From an uncultured Ignavibacteriales bacterium (GTDB taxonomy: Bacteria; Zixibacteria; MSB-5A5; GN15; JAAZOE01), in NCBI GenBank assembly GCA_964523575.1, contig CAZGAV010000010.1:5466-69465 (forward strand): a stretch of 64,000 nucleotides of DNA, read 5' to 3'. Within the stretch, counting starts at the first letter, position 1. Every line of letters begins with the position of its first letter. Shown here in pieces: positions 1,904-10,044 of this stretch. The notes under the pieces were generated by a model that made no database searches, was not told the origin of the DNA, and saw only the letters and a list, made by a program, of their open reading frames with translations. The position numbers were made by a program, and so were the translations under genes.

Positions 1904-2043
1904 AGTCAACTACCGGCCGTCGGACATGGGGAACTCAGCTGACCGGGTTCGTATGATGAGAATTAATTTTCAATCGGGGGTTGTATTTGCAGACTGATCT
2001 TGCATATTATAGGGAAGAATTGACGGACTGGCAGGTACGAGAG

Positions 2044-3354
2044 ATGGAAAAAAAGCTCAGCCAGCTCATTTTCAACAGCATCAGTGACGGTGTTTTCACG
2101 GTCGATCGGAATTGTATTATCATGTCATTCAATAAATCGGCCGAGAAAATCACCGGTTTTATGGCGTCGGAGGCTGTTGGAAAACATTGTTTCGATATTT
2201 TCCGCACCGACCTTTGTCACCGGCAGTGCGCATTAAAGGATACCCTCAAGACTCATAATCAGATCCAGAACGCACGCGTGAAGATCATTACGCGGGACGG
2301 CCGGGAATTGCCGATCAGCGTGACGACGACTATGCTCAAAGACGACCAGGGCGAGATTATCGGCGCCGTCGAATTCTTCCGCGACCTGTCGGAAGTTGAG
2401 CATTTGCGCAAAACCCTCGATCAGAAGCGGGCCCTCGAGGATATCGTCAGTGTCAACCCGAAGATGCATGACTTGATAAATCTGCTGCCCGATGTCGCGG
2501 AATCCGAATGCAGCGTTCTCATCGAAGGTCCCAGCGGCTCCGGCAAGGAGCTTTTCGCTCAGGTTATTCATAACCTCAGTCCGCGTCGGTATGGCCCCTA
2601 TATCAAGATAAATTGCGCCGCACTGCCGGCCAGTCTTCTCGAATCGGAACTGTTCGGCTACGAAAAAGGCGCTTTTACCGATGCCAAGCGCGACAAGCCG
2701 GGGCAATTCAGCCTGGCCAACGGTGGCACCCTCCTGCTCGATGAAATCAGCGAGATGGATATTTCCCTGCAGGTCAAGCTGCTCCGCGTCCTCAATAATG
2801 GCGAATATCGGCCGCTGGGATCGACCAGGACATTTCACACCGATGCACGTATCATCGCCGCCACTAATGCGGATATGGGCGATTTTATCGCTGAGGGGAA
2901 ATTTCGGGAAGATCTTTACTACCGGATAAACGTGGTCAACGTAGCCATTCCTCCATTGCGCGAGCGGCCCGAGGACATTCCGCTTCTCGTGGATCATTTT
3001 CTGGAGGTGTACCGCAAGAAAAGTCACAAAACGATCGAACGGATTTCGCCCAAAGCGTTGTCCGTATTGCGCCGGCATTCATTCCCTGGTAACGTTCGAG
3101 AACTGGAAAACGCGGTCGAACACGCATTTGTCATGTGTCACGGCAACGAGATTCAGGTCGATCATCTTCCCCCGCATATTATAGCGGAGAGTATCCCCGG
3201 CCAGATAACAGCGTCGCGGGAGACCGGTGAGAAGGAGATCATTCAGGAAGCACTGCAGAGATATAACGGCAACAGGTCCCGTGCAGCGATCGAACTGGGT
3301 ATGCATCGATCGACGCTATGGCGGAAAATAAAAACGCTTGGGATAAAAATCTGA
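2044..3354 (+). CDS. sigma-54-dependent transcriptional activator (PAS sensor - AAA+ - Fis-type HTH)
   Basis: PAS region (LIFNSISDGVFTVD...ITGF), Walker A GPSGSGKE, GAFTGA-loop variant YEKGAFTDA, Walker B LLLDEI, and C-terminal HTH SRAAIELGMHRSTLWRKIK. The start is uncertain: ATG 2044 is preferred over TTG 1981, which abuts its putative RBS. Confidence 0.9.
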   Translation: MEKKLSQLIFNSISDGVFTVDRNCIIMSFNKSAEKITGFMASEAVGKHCFDIFRTDLCHRQCALKDTLKTHNQIQNARVKIITRDGRELPISVTTTMLKDDQGEIIGAVEFFRDLSEVEHLRKTLDQKRALEDIVSVNPKMHDLINLLPDVAESECSVLIEGPSGSGKELFAQVIHNLSPRRYGPYIKINCAALPASLLESELFGYEKGAFTDAKRDKPGQFSLANGGTLLLDEISEMDISLQVKLLRVLNNGEYRPLGSTRTFHTDARIIAATNADMGDFIAEGKFREDLYYRINVVNVAIPPLRERPEDIPLLVDHFLEVYRKKSHKTIERISPKALSVLRRHSFPGNVRELENAVEHAFVMCHGNEIQVDHLPPHIIAESIPGQITASRETGEKEIIQEALQRYNGNRSRAAIELGMHRSTLWRKIKTLGIKI

Positions 3355-3394
3355 TTGCGCCGGGGTGCGATGATTACCCGGTTGTGATAATCGT

Positions 3395-3418
3395 CTCGTG
3401 GACTCCACCACGAGTTTT
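3395..3418 (+). terminator. Rho-independent terminator candidate after the activator gene
   Basis: Stem CTCGTGG (3395-3401) / CCACGAG (3408-3414), 6-nt loop, then TTTT (3415-3418). It lies 41 bp after the stop at 3354. Confidence 0.5.
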
Positions 3419-3562
3419 CGGTCAGTTGCGTAAAAGATTGACTGAATATCTTTATAAGTGGCATGATAGAGCATGCAGCGATGCTCCGGCAACGCAATGC
3501 CGGGTTACCGTTTCCCTAAAAGTTCCTTGTCATTTGTGTCATATTTGTGCCCTCTCGCCAAT

Positions 3563-3598
3563 AAACCAGCTGCAAACAGACAAAACCAGCTGCAAACA
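3563..3598 (+). repeat. 16-bp direct repeat AAACCAGCTGCAAACA x2 (20-bp period)
   Basis: Identical copies at 3563-3578 and 3583-3598 in non-coding DNA. Confidence 0.6.
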
Positions 3599-3747
3599 AA
3601 CAAAAAATGGAAATCCCTTGTCCTGTTTTGACTTAAATGCTAATTGACGCCATTTCAATAGGTTACGAAAATCTCTTCCGGAGAATCCCAGCCTCTCCGC
3701 CAGTATCAGAAGATACTTTTTGGCTGTCGCGGGGGCAGAGGCCCCTC

Positions 3748-3820
3748 TTCTGCTGTCGCGTGGATGACCGGAGTTCCTACTTCAAAAGTAAAGTTCTATA
3801 ATTGTCCCAGCTTGCCCGCT
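3748..3820 (+). repeat. 73-bp perfect direct repeat, copy 1
   Basis: TTCTGCTGTCGCGTGGATGACCGGAGTTCCTACTTCAAAAGTAAAGTTCTATAATTGTCCCAGCTTGCCCGCT is identical to 3926-3998. Confidence 0.9.
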
Positions 3821-3925
3821 GCCAGAAGGCAGTTTTCGGCTGTCGCCATTATGACCTGACTATAATCCCAGAGTAACGAGAGTTCTATACTTGTCCCATC
3901 TTCCCCGACACGAATCCATCGTGTT

Positions 3926-3998
3926 TTCTGCTGTCGCGTGGATGACCGGAGTTCCTACTTCAAAAGTAAAGTTCTATAATTGTCCCAGCTTGCCCGCT
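3926..3998 (+). repeat. 73-bp perfect direct repeat, copy 2
   Basis: Identical to 3748-3820; the copies are offset by 178 bp. Confidence 0.9.
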
Positions 3999-4040
3999 CT
4001 TAGAATCACTTGTGAGCGTAGCGAATTAGTGATTCTTAGA
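3998..4040. other. Long imperfect hairpin at the boundary between the repeat array and the GIY-YIG unit
   Basis: Left arm TCTTAGAATCACT (3998-4010) pairs with right arm AGTGATTCTTAGA (4028-4040): 9 bp, one mismatch, then 3 bp, with a 17-nt loop. It lies immediately 5' of the sequence shared by both GIY-YIG copies (CCCTGAGCTTTAGCGA, 4041-4056). Confidence 0.6.
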
Positions 4041-4083
4041 CCCTGAGCTTTAGCGAAGGGCTGATTCTGTCGGGATTGCACTC

Positions 4084-4368
4084 ATGTGGTACATATATAT
4101 CCTGGAATGCCGTGACGGTTCCTATTACACCGGTGTCGCCAAAGACGTAAGAGCGCGGCTGAATAAGCATAATCCCGGCAAGGGCGCGAAATATACGCGG
4201 ATGAAGCGCCCGTGCACCATCATTTATGTCGAGGAACATCCGGATGAAAGCTCGGCACGCCGTCGTGAAATGGAGATCAAGGGCTGGCGGCGCGATAAGA
4301 AAGAAGGATTAATCCGTGGGTTTCCTTCGTCGGCCCTGGATGACCTCCTCAGGATCTCCGGGCAATAG
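4084..4368 (+). CDS. Small GIY-YIG nuclease superfamily protein (UPF0213/YhbQ-like), copy 1
   Basis: 94 aa. MWYIYILECRDGSYYTGVAKDVRARLNKHN...YTR...EIKGWRRDKK carries the GIY-YIG core (YIY...YYTG, R..RL..H, E..IK). 83 of 94 residues are identical to the ORF at 10345-10629. Confidence 0.9.
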   Translation: MWYIYILECRDGSYYTGVAKDVRARLNKHNPGKGAKYTRMKRPCTIIYVEEHPDESSARRREMEIKGWRRDKKEGLIRGFPSSALDDLLRISGQ

Positions 4369-4610
4369 CCCTCCGACGAATCCTACCTCCTCCGCCAGTA
4401 TCGGAAGATACTCTTTGGCTGTCGCGGGGGCAGGGCCCCTTTTCTGCTGTCGCATGGATGATCTCACAATATTCCCAGAGTAACCAAAGTTCGAAACTTG
4501 TCCCAGCCTCCCCGCTGCCAGAAGGCAGTTTTTGGCTGTCGCCATTATGACCTGACTATAATCCCAGAGTAACCAGAGTTCGATATTTGTCCCAGCTTTC
4601 TCCGCCACAT
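4369..4610 (+). repeat. Modular non-coding repeat array B (homologous to array A)
   Basis: Hairpins at 4398-4413 (AGTATC-GGAA-GATACT), ~4427-4439 (GGGGC...GCCCC) and 4516-4527 (TGCC-AGAA-GGCA). Each is followed by a T-run and CTGTCGC (4419-4425, 4447-4453, 4536-4542). The ~59-bp block 4536-4595 is near-identical to 3840-3898. Confidence 0.7.
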
Positions 4611-4646
4611 CATTTTCTAAGGCCACTCTTGACAAAAAAGGTCGCT

Positions 4647-4670
4647 GGACCAATTTAATATGTGGTACAT
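4647..4670 (+). other. Remnant of a GIY-YIG 5' end (GGACCAAT...ATGTGGTACAT) at the left edge of the cassette
   Basis: ATGTGGTACAT at 4660-4670 is identical to the first 11 nt of both GIY-YIG genes (4084-4094, 10345-10355). GGACCAAT at 4647-4654 recurs at 10321-10328, upstream of copy 2. After the 11-mer the reading frame diverges (MWYMSRRQ...). Confidence 0.4.
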
Positions 4671-4772
4671 GAGCCGGCGGCAGACCCGGCTGCGCAACTA
4701 TCTTGCGCCGCGCATCTTCAGCATCATGAATGCCACTCAACGGAAGGCGTCAATAATCTCGATATAAAATCA

Positions 4773-4801
4773 TTGACGTCGGCAATGCCTTTTTGTATAT
4801 T
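4773..4801 (+). promoter_or_regulatory. sigma-70-type promoter for the two-gene cassette
   Basis: -35 TTGACG (4773-4778), 17-nt spacer, -10 TATATT (4796-4801). It lies ~50 bp upstream of ATG 4854, which has an AGGTGA RBS. Confidence 0.55.
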
Positions 4802-4853
4802 ACTCTCAGGGAATAAAATCTCTTCAGGCATTTTCAACGTGGCAGGTGAAATC

Positions 4854-6665
4854 ATGTATAAAAATTCTTATTGGAAGAATAGGGGTAATCCGTGGGAATA
4901 TGATTCGGGTCCTCCGAAAAATCTATGTTGGCCGAGGTTATTTTCGGAGACGCCCAATTATCGCCGGCTTTCTCTGACGGCATTAGGCAGCGAGAAATTC
5001 AGGTGGCATTTCGGCCCGATGTATTTCCGCGGTCGAACGGGGGCCGGCAGAGTTAAAATTGTCATCATCGGTCAAGAAGGCGCGCAGGATGAGTGTCTTG
5101 CACACAGAGCATTTGTTGGCAGCACGGGAAGCAGGCTACAATATCTTCTTAATTTCATGGGGTTGGATTATTCCTATCTTTTCGTAAACACCTTCGTGTA
5201 CCCAATATACGGCCAATACGCCAGTTACTTCAAATGGCTGGCGCAAAATCTGGAGTCGCCGATTGTCCAGCATCGGCATGATATATTCAATTACATTCTG
5301 AAGAAAAACGATGTCCGGTTGGTTGTTGCGGTCGGGAAAGCCGCTGGAGAGTCGGTTATAACATGGGTAGAAAGCCGCGGCGGAACAGGCCCGGATGGTA
5401 CGGGTGATCTTTCAACCTGCAGCGGAAGTTTCCTCGATCCCAAGACCAGGATTGTCGGGGTTCGTCATCCGGGAGGGGCCAAAATCCCCGGAGAAATCGC
5501 CGAAATAAAACAGAGCTTTCAAGACGCCATAGACAAAATTAATACCTGGATTAAGCAAGATTCGGCCTGGTTGCCCCCCGACCCCGGAATGACAAGAGAT
5601 TTGAGTCTCCCATATTCATTCGGTAAAGCCGCCATTCCTTTTCGAGATTTGCCTTTTGGTATAACCTGGAGATTGGGAAAAGGCAGCACAACGAGTAACA
5701 GAAAGGATTCTCAACGATCGATACAATTGTTTTCGGCCAGCGGCAAATATAATAATTCTGGGGATAAAATCGTATACGCCGATTCAGCCCCCGGGACTGC
5801 GGAGGGGTATTCCGAAAAACCCGGTGATGTACCGTACGAACCGCAGGTTGCCGATTACAGGGATTACGATAAGGGGCCCGGCCTGTCGTTTGCACGCTTG
5901 TTCATGGGCGGCAAAAAGGATCTTGCCTGGCCGGATTTTTCGACCTTGGGAGTAAAATCTGACATATCGCTGGGCTATGGCCCGATTTATAGAGGTCGGC
6001 CAGGTAAAGCGACATTTCTCATCCTGGCAGATCAGCAATCTCATGATGATCTTTTTACCGGACGGGCCCTAACCGGTGAGTCCGGGCAGAGATTCCAGGC
6101 GTTTCTGAAAGCGATGGGTATTACCAGATCATATTGTATTCTGCGTATTTTGCCGGTGGACATGTTGGATCTCACTCCAGCCAAACGAAAATCCATAGTC
6201 ACCAATACGGAGATAGTAAAAATCTATGACGCCTTTCTTGACAAGATACTGGCCAAGAAGAAAACCAAATTGATATTAACTTTGGGTGAAATGTCGGCGA
6301 CATTGATTCAAAAATTGCAGACAGCGCCGATAGACGTCATAAATCTCCGCTCATGGCTTCAATCAGGGGCCCTGAGTGACTGGCAGAGTGCCATAAATAG
6401 CATCAAGACAAAGTCATATCCCAAAGATATTACCAATCCGTCATTTACATATAATGGCGGACGATGGCAAATACCAGGCTATGATTTGCCCTACGGGACA
6501 TTGAAATGGCTGGGCAGTTCGGGAGATCGGGCGCGAAGAGCCAAGGATAGTGCCGGGCAATGGTCAGCAGGATATTATAAACTATTCATGCCTCAATGGG
6601 CTTTCTCTCTGGCTCCTCCGCCGCTGTCCAATAGTGAGGCAAATTCCATAGCCAAGCATCCATAG
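4854..6665 (+). CDS. Protein with two tandem uracil-DNA-glycosylase-superfamily-like domains (function unknown)
   Basis: ORF 4662-6665 trimmed to ATG 4854 (AGGTGA 7 nt upstream; earlier codons overlap the promoter). Domain 1: VKIVIIGQEGAQDE..AFVGSTGSRL..LFVNTFVYP...VGVRHPGG mirrors UDG motif A (GxxPG..E...PFvG.aG), the N/F-containing strand and motif B (HPS). Domain 2: FLILADQQSHDDLFTGRALTGESGQRF...YCILRILP is a degenerate second copy. Fold call from motifs only. Confidence 0.55.
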   Translation: MYKNSYWKNRGNPWEYDSGPPKNLCWPRLFSETPNYRRLSLTALGSEKFRWHFGPMYFRGRTGAGRVKIVIIGQEGAQDECLAHRAFVGSTGSRLQYLLNFMGLDYSYLFVNTFVYPIYGQYASYFKWLAQNLESPIVQHRHDIFNYILKKNDVRLVVAVGKAAGESVITWVESRGGTGPDGTGDLSTCSGSFLDPKTRIVGVRHPGGAKIPGEIAEIKQSFQDAIDKINTWIKQDSAWLPPDPGMTRDLSLPYSFGKAAIPFRDLPFGITWRLGKGSTTSNRKDSQRSIQLFSASGKYNNSGDKIVYADSAPGTAEGYSEKPGDVPYEPQVADYRDYDKGPGLSFARLFMGGKKDLAWPDFSTLGVKSDISLGYGPIYRGRPGKATFLILADQQSHDDLFTGRALTGESGQRFQAFLKAMGITRSYCILRILPVDMLDLTPAKRKSIVTNTEIVKIYDAFLDKILAKKKTKLILTLGEMSATLIQKLQTAPIDVINLRSWLQSGALSDWQSAINSIKTKSYPKDITNPSFTYNGGRWQIPGYDLPYGTLKWLGSSGDRARRAKDSAGQWSAGYYKLFMPQWAFSLAPPPLSNSEANSIAKHP

Positions 6666-6678
6666 GAGGTACGCGCAA

Positions 6679-9600
6679 ATGGAGAAAATCAAATTGGGGG
6701 CAAATACCAAATATGCCCTCGAGGGTCGTGTCGTCTCTCTGGATGCAGAGTCGACAGTTTTCGAATCGGGAGTGATATATATTGAGGGTGATACGATTGT
6801 CGACGTGAGGAAGTCGTCGCAATCCCCTCCTCAGGGATTCACCAAGAAAGACATCATCAAAACCGGCGGAACCATCTATCCGGGTTTGATCGAGTTGCAC
6901 AATCATCTCAGTTATAATATCCTGCCTATGTGGGACGTGCCGAAGACGTTTTTCAATCGTGATCAGTGGCGAAGACACCCGGATTACAAGAAAAAAATGA
7001 CCGGTCCTATGCGGATCTTAGGGAAAATCGACGGTTACCTTCAAGCCATTGTCAGATATGTCGAATGCAAATTGTTATTTTCCGGGGTGACGTCGTCTCA
7101 GGGGATAACACTCTCCATCGCGGCCAAAATCCAGAAGTTGTACAAAGGGGTGGTCCGAAATGTCGAGCAGACAATAGATGATGATCTGCCCGGCGCTGAT
7201 ACCAGAATTGCCGATGTAGATGCAAAAGATGCGGCGCATTTTCAAAAGATACTGGAGAAGTGCAAGAACTGCTACTTAATACATCTGGCAGAAGGTGTCA
7301 ACACCAGCGCCAATAAACACTTTAAAGCGCTGCAAGTGTCCCCTGATAACTGGGCCATTACGGATAAACTGGCGGGGATACACTCGGTCGGATTATATCC
7401 CGAAGATTTTAAGGTCATGCGCGATCATAACGGTTCCATTATATGGTCGCCGATGAGTAATTTTCTCCTGTACGGAACAACGGCTGATATAAAATCGGCC
7501 AAGAAAAACGAACTATTGATCGGCATGGGATCCGACTGGTCAGCCAGCGGCAGCAAAAACCTGCTTTGCGAACTCAAAGTGGCTCATTTGTTCAATAAAA
7601 ACAATGGCAATCTATTTACCGACGAACAACTGATACGAACAGTGACAACCGACGCCGCAAAAATCCTGCACTGGGATAAAAAAATAGGAAGTCTCGAGAA
7701 AGGGAAAAAGGCGGATTTGATAGTCCTGAGGGGCAAGAAAGGGGAACCCTGCACCAATCTTATAAACTCCAACGAACATCAAATCATTCTTGTGGTTATC
7801 GATGGATGGCCAAGATTCGGTTACAAGCGCTTTTTGGGTAAATTTGACGTCACATTGGAAAAGGTAAGAATCGGCACCTATACCAGGTATATGAATCTGA
7901 AAAACGAATCGGAGAATATAATAGACATCGACGTTTCATTTAAGGATGCGCAAAAGAAATTGATTAAAGGTATGCGAGACCTTCCTCAGCTTGCCAAACA
8001 ACAGGAGGACTACGACAGCGGCATTTTCGCCGGCACAACCTTTATCTCGGAACACCAATCTGACGTTAGTATATTTTTGGAGCATGAAGACCATGAGGGC
8101 AGCTCTCAGCGACATCATTTTGGTGCGGAATTTTCCTGTGGAGGGCTCTTCGATCAGGGCGCGACCGTCTATTCCGAGATATTGGAGGGCCTGGAGCTCG
8201 ATCCGCCGACCATCGCAGATGACCATCGTTATTTTGACAAACTGGCCAGACAAATGAACCTGCCTGATTACATAGCCGCCGGGCTGCCGGGATACTATGG
8301 AAGAAAAGTCACAATATCAGCTGCCGACAGCGTGTCGCGTAACAAAAGCTATCTAAAGCGGTCGAATTTCGATTCAATTCAATCCTTGGCCACCTTCCGC
8401 ATGACACCGGGATATCTGCACCCAAATGACCGACTGACCATTATCGATCAGGCAATATCCATACTAAAAAATGCCTATGTTCATTTGCCTTTGAAAAGGG
8501 CCAGACATGCGTCCAACCCCCTGAAGCGGCTGGATTTATTGCGCGATGCGGTGCAATATGATGATGATTATAATTCCGAGTTGGAGTTTCACTCCGAGAT
8601 AATCCAGATATTTAATTCATTACGGGATCTGCATACGGTCTACCATTTGCCTGCGCCATTCAATGACAAGGTTGTCTTTGTCCCCTTCATGATTGAGGAA
8701 TGCTACGAAGGCGAAGAACCCAAATACATCATTTCGCGAATAATGAGCGATGATGTTCCCTCGAGTTTTAAGATCGGTGTCGAGGTCACCCATTGGAATA
8801 ATATACCTATCAGGAGGGCTATCGCCTCCAATGGGGATCGCTATGCGGGCAGCAATAAGGCGGCCAGATTTGCAAGAGGTCTGAATTCGATGACCTTCAG
8901 GCACCTGGAGGTCATGCTGCCGCCGGAAGAAGAATCAGTCACCCTTAATTATCGAGACCCCGGGTCTGGTAAGAGGACGAAGGGCATAAAGAGGAGAATC
9001 AGCTTCCCTTGGTTGGTGGGATCGGTCAACTCAGAATACATGCTGAACATGGAAAACGGCTGGCGTGCGGCGCATCAAACGTTGTCCGGCTATGATTATA
9101 ACACTCTTTTGGTTCAGAACACACGAAAGGCCTTTTTTGCCCCCGGCCAATTATATAAGCGCAAGCTTTCTGAGGGCAGCAACAAACGCGAAAATCCTTT
9201 CTATGGATTTGAAGAGACGCGTTTCCCCAATCACTTCCGCTGCAAAAAAGTAACGCATGAGGGAAAATCATACGGTTATATCCGCATTTTCTCCTTTGAC
9301 ACCGACAACCCTTTGGGGTTGGCCGAAGAATTCGCTCGGCTGCTTCACAGGATGCCGCCGACGGGAGTGATTCTGGATGTTCGCAATAATGGAGGCGGCC
9401 ACATCCGGGCGGCCGAGTATATGCTGCAAACTCTTTCGAAAAAATATATCAACACGGAAGCGGCGCAGTTTATCAATTCCGACTTCATTGAATATTTATG
9501 CAGGGTTCATTCCCCTTCGAATATAAATGAGCAGTTGGATTTGTCCAGATGGCGAGATTCCCTGGATGAGTTAAGAAATACCGGGGAAGATTATAGTCAG

Positions 9601-10044
9601 GGATTTCCGCTGACACCGCGGTCCCTGTTGAAACGATTTCGGTCGAATCGAGGTTACAAGCTGGTATTGATCACCGACGCCTTATGCTATAGCGCCACCG
9701 ATATATTTGCTTCAGGATTTCAAGATAATAAACTCGGTACAATACTGGGTATACATGAAAACACCGGTGCGGGTGGCGCCAACGTGTGGACTCATTCGAT
9801 CCTTTACGAGCTGACCCTGGATGTGAATGGGGATTCACAGTATTTCGAACCCCTCCCTTGTGGCGCCAATTTCACTGTAGCCATACGCCGCATGTTGCGG
9901 ACCGGCGACAATCAGGGCCTGCCTTTGGAGGATCTAGGTGTCGAACCGGATTATATCCACCGGATGACAAAAGCCGATTTGCTGGGTAAAGACCATGCAA
10001 ACAGGGATCTTATTGCCAGAGCGTGTGAAATTCTTCGTGAGTGA
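6679..10044 (+). CDS. Fusion protein: N-terminal COG0402-type (nucleobase/nucleoside deaminase-like) amidohydrolase and C-terminal peptidase S41 (tail-specific/tricorn-like) domain
   Basis: RBS TAGGAGGT precedes ATG 6679. Amidohydrolase motifs: PGLIELHNHLSY (HxH), IHLAEG (HxxE), HSVGL, SPMSNFLL, GMGSDWSAS, GSLEKGKKADLIVL. S41 motifs: DLHTVYHLP helper region, GVILDVRNNGGGH, LVLITDALCYSATDIFASGF (Ser nucleophile context), TILGIHENTGAGGANV. 1121 aa, with no signal peptide evident. Confidence 0.75.
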   Translation: MEKIKLGANTKYALEGRVVSLDAESTVFESGVIYIEGDTIVDVRKSSQSPPQGFTKKDIIKTGGTIYPGLIELHNHLSYNILPMWDVPKTFFNRDQWRRHPDYKKKMTGPMRILGKIDGYLQAIVRYVECKLLFSGVTSSQGITLSIAAKIQKLYKGVVRNVEQTIDDDLPGADTRIADVDAKDAAHFQKILEKCKNCYLIHLAEGVNTSANKHFKALQVSPDNWAITDKLAGIHSVGLYPEDFKVMRDHNGSIIWSPMSNFLLYGTTADIKSAKKNELLIGMGSDWSASGSKNLLCELKVAHLFNKNNGNLFTDEQLIRTVTTDAAKILHWDKKIGSLEKGKKADLIVLRGKKGEPCTNLINSNEHQIILVVIDGWPRFGYKRFLGKFDVTLEKVRIGTYTRYMNLKNESENIIDIDVSFKDAQKKLIKGMRDLPQLAKQQEDYDSGIFAGTTFISEHQSDVSIFLEHEDHEGSSQRHHFGAEFSCGGLFDQGATVYSEILEGLELDPPTIADDHRYFDKLARQMNLPDYIAAGLPGYYGRKVTISAADSVSRNKSYLKRSNFDSIQSLATFRMTPGYLHPNDRLTIIDQAISILKNAYVHLPLKRARHASNPLKRLDLLRDAVQYDDDYNSELEFHSEIIQIFNSLRDLHTVYHLPAPFNDKVVFVPFMIEECYEGEEPKYIISRIMSDDVPSSFKIGVEVTHWNNIPIRRAIASNGDRYAGSNKAARFARGLNSMTFRHLEVMLPPEEESVTLNYRDPGSGKRTKGIKRRISFPWLVGSVNSEYMLNMENGWRAAHQTLSGYDYNTLLVQNTRKAFFAPGQLYKRKLSEGSNKRENPFYGFEETRFPNHFRCKKVTHEGKSYGYIRIFSFDTDNPLGLAEEFARLLHRMPPTGVILDVRNNGGGHIRAAEYMLQTLSKKYINTEAAQFINSDFIEYLCRVHSPSNINEQLDLSRWRDSLDELRNTGEDYSQGFPLTPRSLLKRFRSNRGYKLVLITDALCYSATDIFASGFQDNKLGTILGIHENTGAGGANVWTHSILYELTLDVNGDSQYFEPLPCGANFTVAIRRMLRTGDNQGLPLEDLGVEPDYIHRMTKADLLGKDHANRDLIARACEILRE

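Follow-up and report, generated by a model that had tools for sequence, protein, structure and literature searches.

A gene at positions 4854 to 6665 (+ strand) of a 64,000-nucleotide (nt) stretch of DNA from an uncultured Ignavibacteriales bacterium (contig CAZGAV010000010.1, hereafter the window) encodes a covalently fused pseudo-heterodimer belonging to the BdiUng class of glycosylases with the uracil-DNA glycosylase (UDG) fold. As first cistron it heads an ancient and conserved cassette, in which a metal-dependent amidohydrolase of COG0402 type comes second. An ancestral homodimeric enzyme of ~270 amino acids (aa), dimerising through a C-terminal β-hairpin, underwent tandem duplication, and we read the product as one catalytic protomer joined to one remodelled, non-catalytic protomer under purifying selection. 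To our knowledge, all characterised UDG families are single-domain enzymes. A natural tandem with one active and one remodelled module, and a class-wide coupling to an amidohydrolase with or without a tricorn-like protease, are apparently undescribed; our literature search found no paper on a link between UDG and amidohydrolase or S41 protease, or on a tandem protein with two UDG domains.

BdiUng (Blr0248 of Bradyrhizobium diazoefficiens; structures 5GN2, 5GN3, 5GNW and 5GRK) is the closest match, by sequence and by structure, to both modules of the window protein. It founded a new UDG class (Chembazhi et al., NAR 2017, PMC5449639) that is insensitive to Ugi. The enzyme is a homodimer formed mainly through its C-terminal β-hairpin, with both active sites facing the same side, and it excises uracil, 5-hydroxymethyluracil and xanthine, preferring single-stranded DNA and requiring at least pNUNN as substrate (PMC5449639).

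Two UDG-fold modules and their active sites

The two halves of the protein are homologous. Compared directly with BLASTP they matched at E 1e-12, and profiles of the halves built from 28 homologues aligned in hhalign over 215 columns (aa 15-278 against aa 338-558) with a probability of 99.3% and E 7.8e-21; profiles from a second, independently sampled sequence set gave 98.9% and E 1.6e-17. The mutual similarity is thus far beyond chance. It takes in an N-terminal extension ([DE]YD.GP...GP.YRGR) and a C-terminal hairpin (IP..DLP.G..W.G), so the ~150-aa linker rich in G, P, S and K that an earlier note on this DNA had placed between the domains is mostly module sequence: aa 261-293 belong to the hairpin of module 1 and aa 336-385 to the N-terminal extension of module 2, the latter being homologous to aa 13-60; the linker itself shrinks to about aa 296-335. 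The parts of the gene are as follows.

4854..6665 (+): gene for the 603-aa tandem BdiUng-type UDG-fold protein; stop codon 6663-6665
4854..5738 (+): module 1 (aa 1-295), putatively catalytic, with N-terminal extension and C-terminal hairpin
5064..5093 (+): motif A of module 1, IIGQEGAQDE (aa 71-80), with Q74, E75, G76, A77 and E80 placed by alignment to 5GN2
5109-5138 (+): AFVGSTGSRL
5181..5204 (+): FVNTFVYP; F110 aligns with BdiUng M92 and N112 (nt 5187-5189) with the base-recognising N94; F110 and N112 are invariant
5460..5477 (+): VRHPGG, in which H205 (nt 5466-5468) corresponds to BdiUng H168, the His equivalent to that of motif B; the family alignment shows no variation at H205 or P206
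5634..5732 (+): C-terminal hairpin region of module 1, IPFRDLPFGITWRLGKG...IQLFS (aa 261-293), corresponding to the hairpin by which BdiUng dimerises; strands predicted at E281-284 and E289-293; homologous to aa 539-578
5739..5858 (+): inter-module linker (aa 296-335), acidic (isoelectric point (pI) 4.1) and poorly conserved, with variable columns and blocks of predicted local distance difference test (pLDDT) 65-73
5859..6662 (+): module 2 (aa 336-603), with the UDG fold but lacking the canonical catalytic residues
6018..6095 (+): motif-A region of module 2, LILADQQSHDDLFTGRALTGESGQRF, with A392-D393-Q394-Q395-S396 in place of G-Q-E-G-A (hhalign register)
6135..6155 (+): CILRILP; R431 (nt 6144-6146) stands where BdiUng has its base-recognising Asn; both R431 and P434 are invariant
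6339..6356 (+): INLRSW, where the motif-B His is missing and [LM]-K-[AS]-W stands instead; conservation of K499 and W501 is at least 90%
6468..6587 (+): C-terminal hairpin region of module 2, QIPGYDLPYGTLKWLGSSG...YYKLF (aa 539-578); strands predicted at E560-564 and E570-578; aligns with the hairpin of module 1

Profile and structure comparison place both halves in the UDG-superfamily fold, an α/β/α sandwich built round a central four-stranded parallel sheet, rather than in an unrelated one, each closest to 5GN2, which bears out the earlier proposal of two such domains in one chain. Pfam UDG (PF03167) matches the 603-aa protein in two stretches, and the best-scoring stretch for TIGR00758 (family 4 UDG) lies in half 2. 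The sole significant phmmer match in the Protein Data Bank (PDB) was Blr0248 (5GN2), to module 1 (E 1.6e-18), and the profile of each half matched 5GN2 (E 1.9e-28 for module 1, E 1.8e-7 for module 2). An AlphaFold2 (AF2) model of the whole protein reached pLDDT 89.2 and a predicted template modelling score (pTM) of 0.90, which indicates that the two halves are predicted to form one compact body, and the order of secondary-structure elements in this model is the same in both halves. Searched with Foldseek, the model retrieved 5gn2_A first (E 9.7e-13), followed by family 4 UDG, UdgX and SMUG1. Modelled alone, aa 301-603 (pLDDT 91) likewise retrieved 5gn2_A first (E 7.3e-15, template modelling (TM) scores 0.63/0.70, 279 columns), then family 4 UDG, UdgX, SMUG1, UNG and TDG. 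The protein is a covalently fused pseudo-dimer because it contains two full-length homologous modules, both closest to homodimeric BdiUng. The pseudo-dimeric arrangement suspected in the earlier note is strongly supported: BdiUng is an obligate homodimer via its C-terminal β-hairpin, and hairpins are kept in both modules (predicted at E281-293 and E560-578) and are mutually homologous, as fits the BdiUng class.

Module 1 looks catalytically competent from its residues, because the pocket positions of BdiUng are filled by nearly invariant ones. The BdiUng pocket comprises Q56, D57, P58, A59, E62, L69, G71, A73, M92, N94 and H168, with A59 setting the broad specificity (PMC5449639); the residues of module 1 at these positions are Q74, E75, G76, A77, E80, F87, G89, T91, F110, N112 and H205. 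Across 28-29 homologues nearly all of them are invariant, apart from Glu/Asp interchange at position 75. Within motif A, G73, Q74, G76, D79 and E80 are invariant, and E75 (codon at nt 5076-5078, corresponding to BdiUng D57) is conserved to at least 90%, with Asp in one homologue (P0109). The first domain had been said to keep the layout of motifs A and B, and E75, N112 and H205 do align with BdiUng D57, N94 and H168. The motifs quoted for it are present, IIGQEGAQDE exactly where it was placed (nt 5064-5093), VRHPGG about 4 nt and LILADQQSHDDLFTGRALTGESGQRF of the second domain about 3-5 nt away from the positions given. Mean column identity is 70% in module 1.

The motif itself departs from the reference. 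Motif A reads GQEGA in module 1 and GQDPA in BdiUng (Asp to Glu, Pro to Gly), so that the putative catalytic carboxylate is one methylene longer, and BdiUng M92 is replaced by Phe. The literal GQDPA signature of the class thus fails in both modules (GQEGA in module 1, ADQQS in module 2); for module 1 the earlier remark that GQEG fits no classical family signature was correct, GQDPA being the nearest. Judged by the residues kept, GQEGA is a motif variant and not a loss, because module 1 retains a carboxylate and, in A77, the small residue equivalent to A59. Module 1 further differs from BdiUng in a large insertion at aa 175-198 with GG.CP. A large subgroup of single-domain BdiUng homologues carries ASDPG instead of GQDPA (genes at L088 5198-5980 and L091 5214-5990; N-termini of P0297 and P0333), and these ASDPG-type UDGs are the ones upstream of, or fused to, an amidohydrolase of ~540 aa. 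GQDPS also occurs among the motif-A variants of single-domain members of the wider family. The motif of the BdiUng class is therefore, given the ASDPG subgroup, more variable than published.

Module 2 has kept the fold and lost the canonical active site. The catalytic residues of the UDG superfamily (a motif A carboxylate or amide, an Asn and the motif-B His) occur together in module 1 only; in module 2 their positions hold Q394 and R431 and the His-bearing segment is deleted, so that acid, Asn and His are all gone. In this sense the second domain is degenerate, as had been claimed. It is also under strong constraint, which the claim had left out: although its mean column identity is lower than that of module 1 (60% versus 70%), the pocket residues substituted there (D393, Q394, D399, R404, R431, K499 and W501) vary little or not at all, the loop that pinches the backbone, R404..G408..G411-Q412 with the pattern R..(L/V)(T/V)G..G.R, is retained, and D393, Q394, D399, R404, A405, G411 and Q412 are invariant in the motif-A region. 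Because the replacement residues are invariant, module 2 looks repurposed and not decaying; its conservation rules out a decaying duplicate.

The window protein shares with the BdiUng family the [DE]YD.GP and GP.YRGR elements, the position of motif A, R..VG..G.R.Q.FL, SY..N.F.Y, HP and the C-terminal IP..DLP.G hairpin. Both have no Fe-S cluster cysteines (C179 is the only conserved Cys in the tandem family), and in both, two modules make up the functional unit. BdiUng assembles it as a homodimer of 272-aa chains whose two active sites are identical; the window protein is a single 603-aa chain with one canonical and one remodelled site. The window protein belongs to neither family 1 nor family 4. 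Family 4 UDG (UDGa; Thermus thermophilus 1UI0, Sulfolobus tokodaii 4ZBY) and UdgX come next among the structural matches to both modules, and the A-D-Q of module 2 resembles their G-E-A or G-E-Q, but their profiles match weakly (NCBIfam 28-40 bits against cut-offs of 125-250), the window modules have neither the GE[AQ]PG motif nor the four-Cys Fe-S set, and these enzymes are monomeric, single-domain and without the N-terminal extension and C-terminal hairpin. Family 1 UNG has GQDPY/HPSPLS where the window protein has GQEGA/HPGGA, and UNG structures gave weak Foldseek matches only (E ~1e-2). The window protein descends from the BdiUng class and retains its carboxylate and small residue, its Asn and His, the C-terminal hairpin and the partner gene in the operon.

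The amidohydrolase partner and the cassette across genomes

The most informative feature for function, missed by the earlier note, is the gene that follows 13 nt downstream, in which a deaminase-type amidohydrolase is fused to a peptidase.

6679..10044 (+): partner gene, a 1121-aa fusion of an amidohydrolase with a PDZ/S41 peptidase, co-transcribed, with its own GGAGG ribosome-binding site
6679..8238 (+): amidohydrolase domain (aa 1-520), COG0402 deaminase/chlorohydrolase type (Pfam Amidohydro_1, Amidohydro_3)
6895-6909, 7279-7296, 7375-7392 and 7525-7542 (+): amidohydrolase catalytic motifs H74-x-H76, H202-L-A-E205, H235 and D286, respectively
8239..10041 (+): helical/PDZ/S41 peptidase region (aa 521-1121), tricorn/CPAF-like (Pfam Peptidase_S41; NCBIfam CPAF; PDZ_4 in homologues)
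8632-8646 and 9685-9702 (+): candidate protease residues H652 and S1005 (in CYSATD), with E1084, from conservation in 40 sequences

H74, H76, H202, E205, H235 and D286 are invariant in 60 sequences and make up the complete deaminase catalytic set. The closest solved relatives are AtzA (the best PDB match), 5'-methylthioadenosine/S-adenosylhomocysteine (MTA/SAH) deaminase and guanine deaminase; NCBIfam matches include 8-oxoguanine, MTA/SAH, 5'-deoxyadenosine and aminofutalosine deaminases, all far below their equivalog cut-offs. With the COG0402 enzymes acting on free bases (8-oxoguanine, guanine and cytosine/isoguanine deaminases, N2,N2-dimethylguanine hydrolase, AtzA/AtzB) the partner shares HxH, HxxE, H, D and WSPxSN; it differs from them in a conserved C-terminal extension of ~100 aa, here in the fusion to PDZ-S41, and in its constant coupling to a UDG-fold gene. 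In the protease part, S1005 and H652 are at least 90% conserved, E1084 is conserved, and the position of the S41A Lys reads TGAGG, without Lys; these candidate residues, assigned from sequence conservation, are consistent with an S41B-like Ser-His(-Glu) enzyme. The likeness to tricorn and CPAF (S41 subfamily B) consists of the Pfam S41 and NCBIfam CPAF matches, the tricorn PDZ_4 domain in homologues, and the Ser and His without the S41A Lys. Unlike tricorn, the window protease is fused to an amidohydrolase and has no β-propeller domains.

The association of UDG and amidohydrolase recurs throughout the family. An amidohydrolase homologue was present in 76/80 related loci, starting at most 300 nt downstream on the same strand in 56 and lying upstream or convergent elsewhere. 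The S41 part is fused (~1100-1200 aa), encoded by a separate adjacent gene (~520 + 620 aa) or absent, as in about a dozen tandem loci and most single-domain cassettes. When open reading frames (ORFs) were called in 81 loci and clustered by all-against-all BLAST, nothing besides UDG and amidohydrolase/S41 was conserved; the next clusters covered at most 12 loci and reflected lineage-specific synteny or antisense ORFs. About ten Ilumatobacteraceae loci (L041-L067) have a gene resembling the DnaE-type DNA polymerase III alpha subunit (~1000-1150 aa) a few kb downstream of the cassette on the opposite strand, probably also lineage-specific synteny.

The link between UDG and amidohydrolase is older than the tandem duplication, and single-domain relatives carry it in several forms. 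A close relative of BdiUng is a case in point: the gene for its Bradyrhizobium japonicum orthologue (92% identical) overlaps a 536-aa amidohydrolase gene by 4 nt (JBIYDZ010000001.1, L092 6001-8426), which suggests translational coupling, and this amidohydrolase is 43% identical to the window partner (E 1e-124). The BdiUng orthologue and the window gene are thus alike in having an amidohydrolase gene immediately downstream, differing in the PDZ-S41 protease borne by the window partner; the BdiUng paper (PMC5449639) makes no mention of an amidohydrolase neighbour. A RecQ helicase gene lies ~5.6 kb upstream of the Bradyrhizobium orthologue on the opposite strand. Another single-domain UDG, P0256 (gene L085 6001-6954), with motif GQDPA, lies 23 nt downstream of a gene for an 1184-aa amidohydrolase-PDZ-S41 protein. 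The amidohydrolase domain has at least 3184 homologues, mostly stand-alone and ~540 aa long; at four loci examined, from two clusters of stand-alone amidohydrolases, each had a gene for a UDG of ~260 aa 10-20 nt upstream, and two of these UDGs matched 5GN2 at 1e-32 and 2.5e-28. At least 12 clusters of ~800-813 aa have the size of UDG + amidohydrolase fusions, an architecture found in 5/5 of those scanned with Pfam, and P0270 (gene L083 1387-3987) is a complete gene for a fusion in the reverse order, amidohydrolase before UDG. For two single-domain relatives, no partner was found nearby. P0256 (aa ~28-65) and P0270 (aa ~580-615) have in common the motif L.GV...DA..L..AFGI[ST]TIR[EK]LA.N.FF..AQA.L before their single UDG module; without being flagged by Pfam, it looks like a helix-hairpin-helix (HhH) element.

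Tandem proteins of ~600 aa, 47-70% identical, occur in at least nine phyla. They form at least 816 clusters, with 52-69% identity among the best 120. A taxonomic scan, limited by its search pattern and to one genome per species, found 153 loci in Bacteroidota, Planctomycetota, Chloroflexota, Acidobacteriota, Gemmatimonadota, Actinomycetota, Gammaproteobacteria, Campylobacterales, Syntrophales and others; nearly all were in metagenome-assembled genomes, and one was in the cultured Pseudozobellia thermophila DSM 19858. An exhaustive search with module 2 alone (E up to 1e-3) returned only 281 representatives among 1.84 billion, and the longer matches were nearly all tandem proteins with the same N-type then C-type order. 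No homologue was found by tblastn in 72,556 plasmid and 50,697 phage records. Two relatives carry additional domains. P0201, a divergent protein of 1033 aa, has N-terminal HhH motifs before its tandem UDG (L084 2717-17740, contig NODE_4218, ERZ24794647) and stands in a DNA-repair neighbourhood with ExoIII-like (Exo_endo_phos), SprT-like/DUF2786 and SbcCD genes and no amidohydrolase neighbour; a 913-aa protein beside it was considered as a divergent partner and discarded, as it showed no similarity. In P0191 (1148 aa), the tandem UDG is followed at the C-terminus by a lamin-tail domain (LTD, E 4e-9).

Start codon and upstream region

The longest mechanical ORF runs from a GTG at 4662 to 6665 (+) and would encode 667 aa. 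Translation from the ATG at 4854, which is preceded by an AGGTGA ribosome-binding site, gives 603 aa, the length of nearly all homologues. ATG 4854 is favoured because a promoter-like site sits inside the longer GTG-4662 ORF; on homologue length, ribosome-binding site and internal promoter-like site together, we reject the 667-aa ORF as the real gene.

4773..4801 (+): promoter-like TTGACG-17-TATATT, a consensus match only (10/12 positions), ~50 nt upstream of the start codon

Rfam returned no riboswitch or other RNA in the upstream region 3300-5000 (E up to 1) and no match at gathering score anywhere in the window. Immediately before the UDG gene, 4084-4368 (+) encodes a stand-alone GIY-YIG nuclease-domain protein of 94 aa (Pfam E 4e-21) that is not conserved in related loci. 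It is flanked by copies of a 34-nt element, CCCAGAGTAACCARAGTTCGAWAYTTGTCCCAGC, which occurs three times (3867-3900, 4474-4507 and 4563-4596, all +) where chance would predict none; two of the copies adjoin terminator-like hairpins at 4426-4440 and 4514-4529. This may be a repeat resembling repetitive extragenic palindromes or miniature inverted-repeat transposable elements (REP/MITE-like), or the GIY-YIG gene may be a mobile cassette. Further upstream, a 457-aa ORF (1981-3354, +) with PAS-like, AAA+ and helix-turn-helix features, read by eye from the translation, reads as a sigma-54-dependent transcriptional activator. The clustering of the 81 loci ruled out both the GIY-YIG gene and this activator as conserved partners.

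Possible functions of the cassette

We tentatively favour, at a little under an even chance, a scheme in which module 1 excises a base from DNA on a two-module scaffold and the amidohydrolase processes the free base that is released. From DNA, probably in single-stranded form as with BdiUng, module 1 would flip out a base that is damaged or modified, and water activated by Glu75 would cleave the N-glycosidic bond; A77 and G76 would leave a roomy pocket that could admit purines or 5-substituted pyrimidines. Module 2 would stand in for the second protomer, supplying the dimer scaffold but no catalysis, and would probably add DNA-backbone contacts or a docking surface for the partner. The amidohydrolase would hydrolyse the exocyclic amino group, or another leaving group, of the freed base and so remove a product that is mutagenic or inhibitory, in the way that 8-oxoguanine is handled by 8-oxoguanine deaminase. 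By analogy, the latter enzyme and N2,N2-dimethylguanine hydrolase (NdmH), a member of the amidohydrolase subfamily acting on a free, tRNA-derived modified base (PMC13054789), may serve as precedents for a partner acting on free damaged or modified bases. DNA as the substrate is supported by the need of BdiUng for an oligonucleotide, by the HhH fusion in a DNA-repair neighbourhood and by the basic modules of the window protein (pI 9.6 and 9.8).

Several points weigh against this scheme. The BdiUng substrates uracil, 5-hydroxymethyluracil and xanthine carry no exocyclic amine, so that excision followed by deamination needs another physiological base. BdiUng is weak in vitro (assayed with enzyme in excess) and does not complement an Escherichia coli ung mutant (PMC5449639), and DNA uracil may for this reason be a side activity. 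The changes from Asp to Glu and from Pro to Gly in motif A might alter catalysis or do away with it, module 2 is not basic throughout the family (net charge -7 to +18), and the protease has no place in the scheme.

The alternative that survives best, though we consider it unlikely, is a catabolic or salvage pair with no part in genome repair: a base would be freed from oligonucleotides, RNA fragments or a (peptidyl-)nucleoside and then converted to a standard catabolite, with the protease handling the peptide moiety. The weak DNA activity of BdiUng and its failure to replace ung are in keeping with this, as are the combination of deaminase and nucleosidase that is common in the amidohydrolase subfamily (MTA/SAH, 5'-deoxyadenosine and aminofutalosine deaminases), the tRNA-derived substrate of NdmH (PMC13054789), the metabolic genes flanking several loci (amidase, major facilitator superfamily (MFS) transporter, LysR regulators, glycoside hydrolases) and the patchy distribution across genomes. 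The requirement of BdiUng for at least pNUNN, an oligonucleotide, argues the other way, together with the HhH fusions and DNA-repair neighbours in a related tandem clade; there is also no signal peptide, and the cassette has no conserved transporter or additional catabolic gene.

That the order of events is reversed we regard as distinctly unlikely. The amidohydrolase would then act first, on an amino-bearing, N-substituted or peptide-crosslinked base within DNA, after the PDZ-S41 protease had trimmed any attached protein, and module 1 would excise the resulting uracil, xanthine or hypoxanthine. This sequence would suit the known substrates of BdiUng, since uracil, 5-hydroxymethyluracil and xanthine are the deamination products of cytosine, 5-hydroxymethylcytosine and guanine, and relatives of the amidohydrolase displace alkylamines besides NH3 (AtzB/NdmH, PMC13054789; AtzA is the best PDB match). 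It would give the protease a role, one divergent tandem UDG adjoins a gene for a SprT-like protease, and the occurrence of UDG-amidohydrolase fusions in both orders implies a hand-over of substrate. We know, however, of no COG0402 amidohydrolase that acts on a base within a polynucleotide; the protease is absent from the dozen or so tandem loci and most of the single-domain cassettes, and the amidohydrolase domain, with a pI of 6.6, is not basic. A long shot along similar lines is that the cassette is a DNA-lesion machine in which the amidohydrolase removes an exocyclic amine or N-linked adduct, possibly the peptide remnant left after the protease has trimmed a DNA-protein crosslink, module 1 excises uracil, xanthine or hypoxanthine, and the pocket of module 2 holds the strand or adduct. 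If true, it would provide the first COG0402-type DNA base hydrolase and a physiological role for the 'orphan' BdiUng class.

It is very unlikely that both modules are catalytic, with module 2 using D393, Q394, D399, R431 and K499 on a second kind of base. The invariance of these replacements, the resemblance of A-D-Q to the G-E-[A/Q] of family 4 UDG and UdgX, and the best TIGR00758 stretch in module 2 speak for such an activity, but all three canonical functional positions have changed together, the His-bearing segment is deleted, and module 2 is the less conserved of the two. UDG-fold glycosylases can serve in defence, as Brig1 does, and a compact, patchy cassette of two to three genes in variable genomic contexts recalls such systems; an anti-phage or conflict system in which amidohydrolase and glycosylase attack foreign (modified) DNA with the protease as sensor or effector is nevertheless extremely unlikely, given that PADLOC-DB 2.0 has no match for the UDG, partner or GIY-YIG protein, that plasmid and phage records hold no homologue, that conservation across phyla is unusually high for a defence gene, that the gene is stably chromosomal in Bradyrhizobium (a 237-member cluster at 92% identity) and that no conserved defence genes lie nearby.

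A widespread, conserved fusion with one remodelled site implies that the two-module unit is functionally essential and that a single catalytic site is enough. Operons, translational coupling and fusions of either order tie the whole BdiUng class genetically to an amidohydrolase of the deaminase type, and the tandem clade often adds a tricorn-like protease. The cassette points to a pathway of base excision plus base processing that is absent from current repair schemes, and the coupling to the amidohydrolase may explain why BdiUng alone is a poor uracil glycosylase.

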